Positions 21,391-25,963 of a stretch of 32,000 nucleotides of DNA are shown piece after piece. The notes under the pieces were generated by a model. It was not told where the DNA came from. It saw only the letters and a program-made list of their open reading frames with translations, and searched no databases. Position 1 is the first letter of the stretch. Each line of letters starts with the position of its first letter. Source of the stretch: Candidatus Helarchaeota ASGARD archaeon Hel_GB_B (lineage in GTDB: Archaea; Asgardarchaeota; Lokiarchaeia; Helarchaeales; HEL-GB-B); the NCBI GenBank assembly GCA_005191425.1, contig SUPR01000026.1, forward strand, positions 6,113 through 38,112, written 5' to 3'. Position numbers and translations under genes: made by a program.

Positions 21391-22773
21391 ATGAAGTATT
21401 CGGATAAAATAGATGTATTTGACGATATGGGAAATAATATTGCTGAGGATCTACCGATTGAGAGTTTATCACCATTAATAAATCCATTTATACTTGACAT
21501 TTTGAACTTTTTTAAACGGACTGCATTTGTTAATCTTAAAAAGTTAGAATTCATGCTACAAAGCGGTCAGATTGGGTACACAAGTTCTATGAAGCAAGAT
21601 GAAATTCAAATATCCTGTTATACCCGTCCTTGGGAAATAATTGAAAATGCAGAAGCTTTAATTGACCTAATCAAGAAAAAGATCCAAGTATCTGAGAATG
21701 ATGATTCAAATGTTGTTTTGCTACCAGGAAATGAAGTATTAATGGTACAACTCCCTAAAGAACGGATTAGAGCTGCTGCAGGACGCGACTCAGCTTTTTC
21801 AATTGCAGGTGAAGCCACTTTACAAGCTATATCTGAAGTTCATAATATAACTCCTTTGTCCGACCCTGATGGTTGTAATATTTTAAAAAGTATCATTTTT
21901 GGAAGATATCCACAAACAAGGACATTTCCCCCAAGAAATCCGTTGTTTACACTTCTCCACCCGTTTCATACTCAAGAAGGATTAGGAAATGGATTTAGGG
22001 GCATTACAATTAATCATATTGTCGCTTTAACACAAAAAAGAACTTTTGACGCGGTAATCTTAAGTACAATTCTTGAACAAGCTTCCCAATTTGAAATGGG
22101 AAATACTATTGGATGGTTTGAACGGTATAACTTGCTCGGAATGGCATATCAAAGTTTCAATGCAGACCGCGTCTTACTTGACCTTATTGATGAAAATAAA
22201 AATGGGACGGTAGGTGATGTGGTTACTTCCTTAGTAAGAATTGGAATTGAAGATGATATTATTAAACCAAAAAAGAGGTCTTATCCTTATAAATTGTTCT
22301 CTGGATATAAAATATATTCAGTAAAAGATTATGATATGTGGAATGCATATACTTGTGCTGGACTGTTAGCAGCAGTTCTTGTAAATTGTGGTGCAAGTAG
22401 AAGTGCACAATCTATATCTTCAGCTATTACTAGTTTTTGTGATTTATTAATGTTTGAATCTGGTGGCCTACCCGATCCTGATTGCGGAAGGGTTATGGGT
22501 ACAGGCCTTGGACTAAGTCATTTTAATCATGACATTTTCAGTATTGGTGGAACCGGTCTTTTATCATTAGATAATGTTTTAATTAGAAATAATTCGGGTT
22601 TTGTTGCACCTTGTCTTGCAGCTGCAATGAGTTTAGATAGTGGAACTCAATTATATCGCCCCGAAGTTACTTCTGAAATATTTTTTAAAATTAGGGAAGC
22701 TGACCCGATTTTTAAAGGCCCTCTTATTAATAAAGTTGTTGAGTCAGCTCTAGAAATCAAACATAAAATCTAA
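21391..22773 (+). CDS. mcrB: Highly divergent methyl/alkyl-coenzyme M reductase beta subunit-like protein
   Basis: YSDKIDVFDD.G, LSPLINP, GRYPQT, LEQASQFEMGNTIGWFER..LLG.AYQ..NA, GLPDPD.GR..GT and APCLAAAM.LD.GTQ. Confidence 0.93.
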   Translation: MKYSDKIDVFDDMGNNIAEDLPIESLSPLINPFILDILNFFKRTAFVNLKKLEFMLQSGQIGYTSSMKQDEIQISCYTRPWEIIENAEALIDLIKKKIQVSENDDSNVVLLPGNEVLMVQLPKERIRAAAGRDSAFSIAGEATLQAISEVHNITPLSDPDGCNILKSIIFGRYPQTRTFPPRNPLFTLLHPFHTQEGLGNGFRGITINHIVALTQKRTFDAVILSTILEQASQFEMGNTIGWFERYNLLGMAYQSFNADRVLLDLIDENKNGTVGDVVTSLVRIGIEDDIIKPKKRSYPYKLFSGYKIYSVKDYDMWNAYTCAGLLAAVLVNCGASRSAQSISSAITSFCDLLMFESGGLPDPDCGRVMGTGLGLSHFNHDIFSIGGTGLLSLDNVLIRNNSGFVAPCLAAAMSLDSGTQLYRPEVTSEIFFKIREADPIFKGPLINKVVESALEIKHKI

Positions 22774-22787
22774 GGTGTGCATTAGAA

Positions 22788-23597
22788 ATGCCAATGAGTG
22801 AACGAAGAAAAAAGAAAAAAATTAAAGAATTTGAACCACAATACTATCCTGAATGTGATTACGTTGCTGAAAGACGCCGTAAAATTATAAACCCAAATCG
22901 AAGACTAACAAAATTACGTCACATTCCTGACGATAATATAATTTCTTTATTAGGACATAGAGCTCCGGGTGGACTATACACTTCTATTCATCCTCCACTT
23001 GATGAATTGATGGAATCTTTTGACCCAATTAAAGAATTGATAGTCCCAAGTGATGGAGCAAAAATGGGTGATCGTATACGATTTGTCCAAATAATTGATT
23101 CATTTTGGAGACCACCTGTTGCACCATGGTTAAGGCATAAGTTTTATTTTACAAGGTTTAGAGGGGCTGATGTTGTAATTGATGCTGAAAGAACACTATT
23201 AGAAATGAGAGAACGTGATGTTGAAGCAGCAACAAAACTTCTCCTTGAAATGGAATTATTTGATCCCTCTAGAACTTCCTTAAAATCTGTTTCGCATGGT
23301 GGATATTCACATAGATTAGATGAAAACGAATTATCTTTTGATTTGCGGAGAAGATGTATTCTTGACAAAGAATCAGGGCATATAATTTACGTCAAAAATA
23401 TGTCTGGCGAAATATTAGACAAACCTATTTCATTGGGTTTTCCTATAGCTGATGAAGATCTGAAAACTATTGACGTTACTTGGCGCTGGGACAGTTCTCA
23501 ATATAAGTCAAAAAGCGAAATCTTAATGGTCTTAAGTCGTATAGCTGAGAACCGTATTTTGGGAGGTTTTAAACCTAATATGTTAAATTATAGGTGA
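22788..23597 (+). CDS. mcrG: Highly divergent methyl/alkyl-coenzyme M reductase gamma subunit-like protein
   Basis: PQYYP, LGHRAPG..Y.SIHPPL.E, GAK.GDR.R, RGAD, EMRERDVE, FDP.R and RLDEN...FD..RR; upstream AGGTG SD. Confidence 0.93.
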   Translation: MPMSERRKKKKIKEFEPQYYPECDYVAERRRKIINPNRRLTKLRHIPDDNIISLLGHRAPGGLYTSIHPPLDELMESFDPIKELIVPSDGAKMGDRIRFVQIIDSFWRPPVAPWLRHKFYFTRFRGADVVIDAERTLLEMRERDVEAATKLLLEMELFDPSRTSLKSVSHGGYSHRLDENELSFDLRRRCILDKESGHIIYVKNMSGEILDKPISLGFPIADEDLKTIDVTWRWDSSQYKSKSEILMVLSRIAENRILGGFKPNMLNYR

Positions 23598-25427: not shown

Positions 25428-25438
25428 ATACTGGATTA

Positions 25439-25963
25439 GTGGTCAAAATGGAAGATAAAAATAAAAAATATGTTAATGAACCCTGGTGGAAAAAAGAATT
25501 TAAAGATGGATGGTGGAAAGAAGTTTCCTGGATACACCCCCAAGATACTGAACCATCTGGAGTTAGTTTATTCATTGATTATATGCTTGATAAGGCAATT
25601 ATCACTCCAGACGCTGTTAAAATAGCAAGTTGGATACCCCATAGGTTAATATTACTGGAAATTGTCCACCCTTTAAAAGGAACTGAGCGGTTATCTTTTA
25701 TGATCTCGCCAACTTCTGTTACTCCTGGAATCCCTGACGTAACACCTGATGTAATTGTAACTTACGATTATTATGACCTTGCTAAATTCTTAATTGGAAG
25801 AGAAAAAGATTTCACTATGTCTTTTTGGAAGGGACATTCTAGAATATATGGTAATCTTACTGCATTGATTGATTTAGCTGATATTCTTGAAGTTGCTCTC
25901 GGGAAAAAAATAGATGAAGCAAAAGAAGCTCGAATAAAAACTTGGCCTGTTGGATATCCGTAA
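25439..25963 (+). CDS. SCP2 (sterol carrier protein 2)-like lipid-binding domain protein with Trp-rich N-terminus (start probably ATG 25448)
   Basis: PDVIVTYDYYDLAKFLIG...FTMSFWKGHSRIYGNLTALIDL matches the SCP2 pattern pDv.it....d...l..G......af..Gkl.i.Gd...a..l. Confidence 0.8.
   Translation: MVKMEDKNKKYVNEPWWKKEFKDGWWKEVSWIHPQDTEPSGVSLFIDYMLDKAIITPDAVKIASWIPHRLILLEIVHPLKGTERLSFMISPTSVTPGIPDVTPDVIVTYDYYDLAKFLIGREKDFTMSFWKGHSRIYGNLTALIDLADILEVALGKKIDEAKEARIKTWPVGYP

Follow-up and report, generated by a model that had tools for sequence, protein, structure and literature searches.

What does an operon for methyl-coenzyme M reductase (MCR) encode once the residues that hold the nickel cofactor F430 and the coenzymes have been replaced in all three subunits? 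The question is raised by the window analysed here, a 32,000-nt stretch of contig SUPR01000026.1 of Helarchaeales Hel_GB_B (source genome labelled G000), in which four co-directional, uninterrupted open reading frames (ORFs) in the order mcrB-mcrG-mcrA-SCP2 form a tight operon (21391-25963, +). To our knowledge, MCRs have proved to be Ni-F430 enzymes wherever they have been characterised, and surveys routinely take mcrA to indicate methane or alkane metabolism. The MCR-derived complex described below is well conserved and has probably given up Ni-F430 chemistry. Its scaffold is probably now put to a different use, because the pocket has been re-lined and the genome lacks genes to make and switch on the nickel cofactor. 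The fuller reading, to which we give about an even chance, is a neofunctionalised alpha-beta-gamma complex that has abandoned Ni(I)-F430/coenzyme M (CoM)/coenzyme B (CoB) chemistry and has an SCP2 carrier and an A2 ATPase as its partners.

Intact MCR subunits with a rebuilt pocket

The first ORF (21391-22773, +) encodes a McrB-like subunit of 460 aa with the Pfam domains MCR_beta_N and MCR_beta, the second (22788-23597, +) a McrG-like subunit of 269 aa with MCR_gamma, and the third (23604-25427, +) a McrA-like subunit of 607 aa, in which MCR_alpha_N scores 243.7 bits and the C-terminal domain MCR_alpha only weakly (32.7 bits). The fourth (25439-25963, +) begins with GTG, has an alternative ATG at 25448, and encodes a 174-aa protein recognised by its predicted fold. 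The spacers measure 14, 6, and 11 bp, the last becoming 20 bp if ORF4 begins at the ATG. Shine-Dalgarno-like GGTG motifs, read from the sequence itself, precede mcrG (22774-22777, +) and mcrA (23593-23596, +), the latter overlapping the mcrG stop codon. All top PDB matches are MCR chains (alpha, E 8e-90; beta, 1e-104; gamma, 2e-68). Coordinates, Pfam, and PDB matches thus agree with an earlier note on this DNA, which had described intact subunit genes in B-G-A order with 6-14 bp spacers and GGTG motifs. The spacing of 11-20 bp that it gave between mcrA and the SCP2 gene was also confirmed, the SCP2 identity being a matter of predicted fold only.

Against the NCBIfam equivalog models (TIGR03256, TIGR03257, and TIGR03259), the alpha chain (361 vs a cut-off of 767.75) and the beta chain (382.7 vs 516.25) fail, while gamma passes (235.7 vs 172.1). 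Public annotation of the closest relatives is divided in a similar manner: the alpha chains (P0005 and P0006) are recorded as 'hypothetical protein' and beta and gamma chains (P0056 and P0177) as coenzyme-B sulfoethylthiotransferase. Annotation-based mcrA surveys will overlook these divergent Helarchaeales sequences.

Pocket residues were compared in the numbering of Methanothermobacter marburgensis using HMMER alignments to PDB chains 3pot_A, 5a8w_B, and 3pot_C. The almost gapless alignment that the earlier note had reported holds for beta and gamma (gamma aligns gaplessly to canonical 3pot_C), and not for alpha, where the window carries a 42-residue N-terminal extension and ~25 inserted residues. 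Canonical MCR of M. marburgensis (1MRO, 5A0Y, and 3POT) shares the three homologous subunits and their fold, but the window alpha differs from it at 40/122 columns that are universal in MCR and alkyl-CoM reductases (ACRs), and mcrC and mcrD are lacking.

In MCR, Gln147 is the axial ligand, beta-Tyr367 and Tyr333 serve CoM, gamma-Arg120 serves the CoM sulfonate, and Lys256 and methyl-His257 form the CoB phosphate clamp (10.1101/2025.04.26.650772). The alignments confirm that cofactor-contacting residues differ in all three chains of the window. The changes in alpha are Q147L, K256Q, methyl-His257Y, R270S, R271L, G329N, F330I, F443T, Y444T, D450N, C452L, and N481S, and there is no Tyr at or beside position 333. 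The leucine aligned with the nickel axial ligand is Leu189 (codon 24168-24170, +; ungapped alignment to 3pot_A). In beta, the changes are F361H, S365D, Y367F, G368S, G369I, and H379N. In gamma, the loop L117-S118-G119-R120, which touches F430 and CoM, has become acidic (D-A-E-R) and is accompanied by H156G and H158Y. The CoB phosphate clamp, tested as alpha Lys256, methyl-His257, Arg270, and beta His379, is absent, and Q297, Y298, S311, and beta N395 occupy its positions.

These changes clearly exceed the pattern of the typical, putatively long-chain ACRs of the order, as the earlier note had proposed. Typical Helarchaeales ACRs, such as those of two genomes (G003 and G005), belong to the same order, share the mcrBGA + SCP2 plan with an A2 gene nearby, and are 44-46% identical to the window in McrA. 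Unlike the window, they keep Gln147, Lys256, Arg271, Phe330, beta-Phe361, beta-Tyr367, gamma-His156, and gamma S-G-R / V-H-G. Alpha Tyr333 is missing also from the typical ACRs of the order, which retain beta Tyr367. The ethyl-CoM reductase of Ca. Ethanoperedens thermophilum (7B1S; McrA E 4e-70) has a non-Gln axial ligand as well (Met) and a widened chamber; however, it binds dimethyl-F430, CoM, and CoB with few substitutions, whereas the window retains neither the CoB clamp nor the tyrosines, nor the aromatic wall of F330, F443, Y444, and beta-F361.

A Helarchaeales clade under purifying selection

The McrA relatives of the window comprise one sequence at 99% and four at 76-78% identity (A-type), 12 at 51-55% (B-type and one outlier), and 15 typical ACRs (C) at 39-45%. 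Canonical McrA is 31-35% identical to the window alpha, and gamma and beta are 40-48% and 37-42% identical to their canonical counterparts. The records of the closest McrA homologues carry the names Candidatus Helarchaeota or Lokiarchaeota. The maximum-likelihood tree joins the 18 divergent Helarchaeales McrA of our sample in one clade (100/100 support) whose stem measures 0.66 substitutions per site. Its subclades are A (to which the window belongs), B, and D (G006 and P0021). The clade adjoins the typical ACRs, its nearest neighbours, and stands apart from canonical MCR. The McrA tree that the earlier note had called for places the window beside typical ACRs within the ACR radiation, in a long-stemmed clade with the B and D types. 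The operon is not a singleton, since at least 18 related McrA form this clade, and both the leucine and drastic substitutions were already in print, unexplained (PMC9118554). Genome G002, which belongs to the same taxonomic order, carries its B-type mcr operon on a record (L040 = G002:C15, DATKTP010000015.1) titled 'Candidatus Deferrimicrobium sp.', a taxonomy label that is probably wrong.

Full-length open frames were found in every homologue, from many samples, and synteny is conserved. Compared with three further A-type loci, the window genes gave ratios of nonsynonymous to synonymous substitution rates (dN/dS, NG86) of ~0.04-0.06 in mcrB and mcrG, 0.07-0.10 in mcrA, and 0.08-0.09 in the SCP2 gene, values that are rough because synonymous sites are saturated. 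In a congeneric genome (G004), beta and gamma are 84% identical compared to 58-68% for the flanking genes. The earlier note had named neutral evolution or pseudogenisation as what would overturn its proposal, and these values exclude neutral decay. The loss of activation, F430, and CoM genes from the genome, described below, could suggest a decaying pseudo-operon that was left behind when alkane metabolism was lost. This explanation is effectively refuted by the selection data and retains hardly any probability, given the intact frames, dN/dS of 0.04-0.10, mcr genes that are more conserved than their neighbours, and the conservation of both synteny and the new residues.

Polar and charged residues in the pocket

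At the axial-ligand position, Leu is found in the window, in the 99%-identical P0005, and in all B and D sequences, and Gln in the four A-type relatives at 76-78% identity. Beta Tyr367 is replaced by Phe in 6/6 A-type sequences, whose beta chains carry F361H/R, S365D, Y367F, and G368S. B-type beta chains carry F361K and I366E (15/15 sequences), so that position 361 differs among the subclades (A, His; B, Lys; D, Leu or Met). The motif [D/E]-A-[D/E] precedes Arg120 in every gamma chain of the three subclades. The alignments show a pocket re-lined in a non-random manner, with polar or charged residues that are conserved within each subclade. Gln191, two residues past Leu189, was considered as a substitute axial ligand and rejected; it is kept in A and B, but is Lys in the D-type of G006. 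A replacement metal site common to the clade was likewise rejected, the gamma acidic pair alone being conserved clade-wide.

The change in composition was quantified over 47 predefined pocket positions, a list drawn in part from the general MCR structural literature. Net formal charge was +5.0 in MCR and +3.7 in typical ACRs compared to -0.8 in A and -0.2 in B, and the number of aromatic residues was 9.2, 8.5, 3.8, and 4.1, respectively. F430 and CoB are polyanions. If the pocket had widened into a hydrophobic one suited to longer alkanes, neither the loss of ~6 positive charges nor the more polar lining would be expected. This result bears on the main alternative, namely that the complex is an extreme ACR acting on an unusual (very long, branched, or functionalised) hydrocarbon. 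Such an ACR would obtain F430 by scavenging from methane- or alkane-cycling archaea in its surroundings, might use F430 and CoB in modified versions, and would be activated with the help of its own A2. We consider this the strongest alternative, though less likely than not. The position of the window McrA inside the ACR radiation speaks for it; the pocket speaks against it, being ~6 positive charges poorer although F430 and CoB are polyanions, more polar instead of more hydrophobic, and devoid of both CoM tyrosines and the CoB clamp.

The pocket positions also vary among close relatives, contrary to what an extreme ACR would suggest. In canonical MCR, variable McrA columns are rarer in the pocket than in the rest of the chain (27 vs 69%, p = 1e-5), and the same holds for typical ACRs (42 vs 73%, p = 1e-3). 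The direction is reversed in B-type (68 vs 44%, p = 0.02) and, as a trend only, in A-type sequences (58 vs 41%, p = 0.10). Among the 122 alpha columns universal in MCR and ACR, losses are concentrated in the pocket in A-type (9/13 vs 32/109 in the rest, p = 0.01) and in B-type (11/13 vs 23/109, p = 1e-5). Together, these column counts point to an inverted constraint, in which the genes are under strong purifying selection and the pocket is no longer their most constrained part.

A separate A2 ATPase and the missing activation core

We compared seven Helarchaeales metagenome-assembled genomes (MAGs; G000-G006), among which G003 is Hel_GB_A, G005 is LW55_61, and G000 and G004 are of the same genus. 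G000 (3.54 Mb, 93.7% complete, 4.9% contaminated) holds a single mcrA, that of the window; no second mcrA was found. G000 and G004 have A-type MCR only, G006 has D-type only, G003 and G005 have the typical type only, G001 has B-type and three typical copies, and G002 has only B-type in its assembly; a typical-type A2 in G002 suggests an unassembled typical ACR. In at least two Helarchaeales lineages, no MCR homologue other than the divergent type was found, and Helarchaeales with this type alone should not be scored as alkane oxidisers on the basis of mcrA.

In methanogens, A2 docks on McrG, and F430 is reduced by FeS clusters that reside in McrC and Mmp7 (PMC12176620). A2 (AtwA) scores above its equivalog cut-off in 7/7 genomes of the order, the G000 copy lying on C157 (678 bits). 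The A2 tree (loci L031-L037, L015, L017, L018, L020, and G000:C157:8100-9731) resolves three paralogue clades linked to Mmp7, to typical operons, and to divergent MCR. Because the third clade sits inside the B-type operon of G002 and the D-type operon of G006 and includes the sole A2 of G000 and the A2 of G004, the divergent complex has its own co-evolving A2. The N-terminal CxxC...CxxC zinc motif is absent from the typical-operon-linked A2 and kept in the Mmp7-linked and divergent-MCR-linked clades.

The remainder of the activation machinery shows a different distribution. The earlier note had found no mcrC or mcrD in the cluster, and we found none in the window or in the rest of G000. McrC, Mmp7, Mmp17, and Mmp3 gave no hidden Markov model (HMM) match in G000, G004, and G006, MAGs that are 93-94% complete with ~6-7% of each missing, and in G000 tblastn with Helarchaeales and methanogen queries confirmed the absences. 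The chance that one locus is lost from all three genomes alike is ~3e-4. A marginal Mmp7 tblastn match on C128 was rejected as a protein-isoaspartate methyltransferase. Mmp7 was found in G001, G002, G003, and G005, all with typical or B-type MCR; three of them (G002, G003, and G005) also gave a weaker McrC-like match, and Mmp17 was found in G003 and G005, the two searched of the four Mmp7-bearing genomes. Mmp3 and sulfopyruvate decarboxylase (ComE) occur in G005 only and are non-discriminating because they are missing also from the typical-ACR genome G003; ComA, TfuA, and Mmp10 are uninformative because they are absent from every Helarchaeales genome tested. The missing McrC, Mmp7, Mmp17, and Mmp3 in three independent genomes argue against an extreme ACR, and this genome context speaks against ordinary Ni(I)-F430 catalysis, in line with the non-F430 chemistry that the earlier note had suggested.

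Cofactor supply and host metabolism

ALAD, CfbD, and CfbE were found in G005 only among the seven genomes, and G005 carries a cluster of cfbBCDE with an MCR glutamine C-methyltransferase gene and hemD (L023:5289-13484). In G000, no ALAD and no HemD were detected, and a weak PF00148 match (G000:C159) was rejected as CfbD, as it sits in a sugar-nucleotide cluster. The search for cfb genes, proposed in the earlier note as a test, turned out to be non-discriminating because 6/7 genomes of the order lack them, including genomes with typical ACRs such as Hel_GB_A. These results suggest that tetrapyrrole and F430 auxotrophy is widespread in Helarchaeales, even among genomes with typical ACRs and Mmp7. 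The lack of tetrapyrrole and F430 genes in most Helarchaeales bears on whether alkane oxidation in Asgard archaea needs cofactor cross-feeding.

Since G000 has no tetrapyrrole synthesis yet encodes many B12-radical-SAM enzymes and a DUF4430 domain, it must import corrinoids. The latter domain belongs to a transcobalamin-like protein (L049; G000:C129:17358-17546) and is consistent with corrinoid scavenging. G000 also retains Mch, CdhC, ten acyl-CoA dehydrogenases, and HdrB-like genes.

The scaffold might have become a new catalyst with another prosthetic group, either a metal bound directly by the new Asp, Glu, and His residues or a scavenged corrinoid, whose neutral amide side chains would be compatible with a pocket that is acidic or neutral. 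The clade-wide gamma acidic pair, the polar or charged residues conserved within subclades, the corrinoid import of a host without tetrapyrrole synthesis, and the strong purifying selection would all fit such a catalyst. However, its candidate metal ligands differ among subclades, as seen at beta 361 (His, Lys, and Leu or Met), and pocket columns that are more variable than the rest would be unusual for a catalytic centre, so that we regard this explanation as improbable.

The SCP2-fold protein is a general partner of ACR operons

ORF4 has no Pfam match even at E = 10, and the PF02036 HMM is thus not matched. The sole family lead came from its Atlas cluster, in which 11% of members carry PF02036. 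An AlphaFold2 model built with 10 homologues reached a pLDDT of 79.5, and Foldseek matched it to SCP2 structures (E 2e-6, probability 1.00, target TM-score 0.6-0.74). The modelled structure has the SCP2 alpha/beta fold, and we apply the label 'SCP2' by fold only because a Pfam match is absent and the model matches SCP2 structures. A predicted complex of McrA with the SCP2 protein scored 0.00, with the alpha chain folded poorly, and speaks neither for nor against an interaction.

The SCP2 gene that the earlier note had included in the operon is not peculiar to it. An SCP2-fold gene lies directly 3' of mcrA in A, B, and D operons as well as in typical Helarchaeales operons (33-43% identity), and also follows one mcrA in the butane oxidiser Ca. 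Syntrophoarchaeum butanivorans BOX1 (L047:4036-6510); the same adjacency is seen at L022, L021, and L045. Because it adjoins mcrA in typical Helarchaeales and in Syntrophoarchaeum, the SCP2 gene is best regarded as a general accessory of ACR operons. We found no description of the SCP2-mcrA link in the searchable literature.

A probable different use for the MCR scaffold

Our preferred reading, that of a neofunctionalised complex, can be set out as follows. The complex, functional and maintained by selection, would descend from Helarchaeales ACRs. It may bind, and possibly transform, a different and probably amphipathic ligand that the SCP2 protein would hand over, and A2 might drive a conformational cycle instead of nickel reduction. 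The MCR fold, the A2 ATPase, and the SCP2 carrier could then be recruited as a module for another purpose, and the operon together with A2 provides a concrete target for asking what else the MCR scaffold can do. The stronger proposal, that the MCR scaffold with its own A2 and an SCP2 carrier forms a new class of MCR-fold enzyme that acts without Ni(I)-F430 on an amphipathic or lipid-like substrate, seems to us rather doubtful. The new enzyme class of the earlier note is thus still conceivable, although it was overstated as a claim.

Several observations weigh against abandonment of the nickel chemistry, and most of them favour an extreme ACR. The window retains Q400, G442, and G445 in alpha, H364 in beta, and R120 in gamma, the last being the CoM sulfonate anchor, which corresponds to Arg135 of the window gamma chain and is Arg in 5/5 A-type chains; gamma-Arg120, Gly445, and Gln400 in particular would suit an extreme ACR. 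Divergent-MCR genomes retain a dedicated A2, a component of nickel activation, with its zinc motif. HdrB scores above its equivalog cut-off in G004 and G006, and, like its alkane-oxidising relatives, the host has retained a framework of beta-oxidation, Wood-Ljungdahl, and ACS pathways. Cofactor scavenging may be normal in the order, in which genomes with typical ACRs lack F430 biosynthesis and F430 auxotrophy seems common, and bona fide ACR operons have the SCP2 accessory as well. In addition, the seven MAGs are only 82-94% complete, and part of the pocket list comes from the general structural literature on MCR. Ethyl-CoM reductase tolerates a non-Gln axial ligand, Met, and the authors of the same review raised 'a variation of these molecules' for divergent sequences (PMC9118554).

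That review, by Lemaire & Wagner (2022), reports that some Helarchaeota/Lokiarchaeota sequences 'exhibit a leucine' at the axial position, as does the window, and that sequences from transcriptome assemblies show 'even more drastic substitutions' of cofactor and coenzyme ligands, again as in the window (PMC9118554). Matched by description, these sequences very probably belong to the same clade. The family and its odd substitutions are therefore already on record. The review goes no further than the substitutions; it does not mention the monophyly of the clade, its inverted constraint, its A2 paralogue, its association with SCP2 genes, or the lost activation machinery (PMC9118554). Nor did we find a description of how the clade is structured, of the inversion of constraint and of pocket charge, of an A2 of its own, of the general association between SCP2 genes and ACR operons, or of an activation core that has been lost. 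For the typical Helarchaeales ACRs, a published tree places them near the ACRs of Ca. Methanoliparia and Ca. Cerberiarchaeum oleivorans (PMC10811742).

Neighbouring genes and occurrence

Directly 5' of mcrB and loosely associated with the operon lies a 225-aa ORF of no known family (20481-21158, +), without a match in Pfam, NCBIfam, or Atlas. Two further A-type loci have a homologue 5' of mcrB (58-59% identity), and another homologue lies 5' of one B-type operon (31% identity, E 2e-29); by eye, the protein looks helix-rich. A bacterial-type promoter and terminator scan of the window gave chance-level counts, the bacterial models being inapplicable to archaea. The DNA datasets with the operon or mcrA are hydrothermal-vent and marine-sediment metagenomes, and no RNA dataset was listed among those with either.

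Further downstream, the window encodes a B12-binding radical SAM enzyme (29422-30846, +) that is BchE/HpnJ-like and is not the MCR Gln methyltransferase. This gene is syntenic with A-type operons, and a homologue of 28% identity lies near a D-type operon (L017:330-2273). Upstream, a ThiF/E1-like adenylyltransferase (18956-20053, +) resembles Apg7-type E1 enzymes, is kept at the congeneric locus, and may be part of an Asgard ubiquitin-like system.

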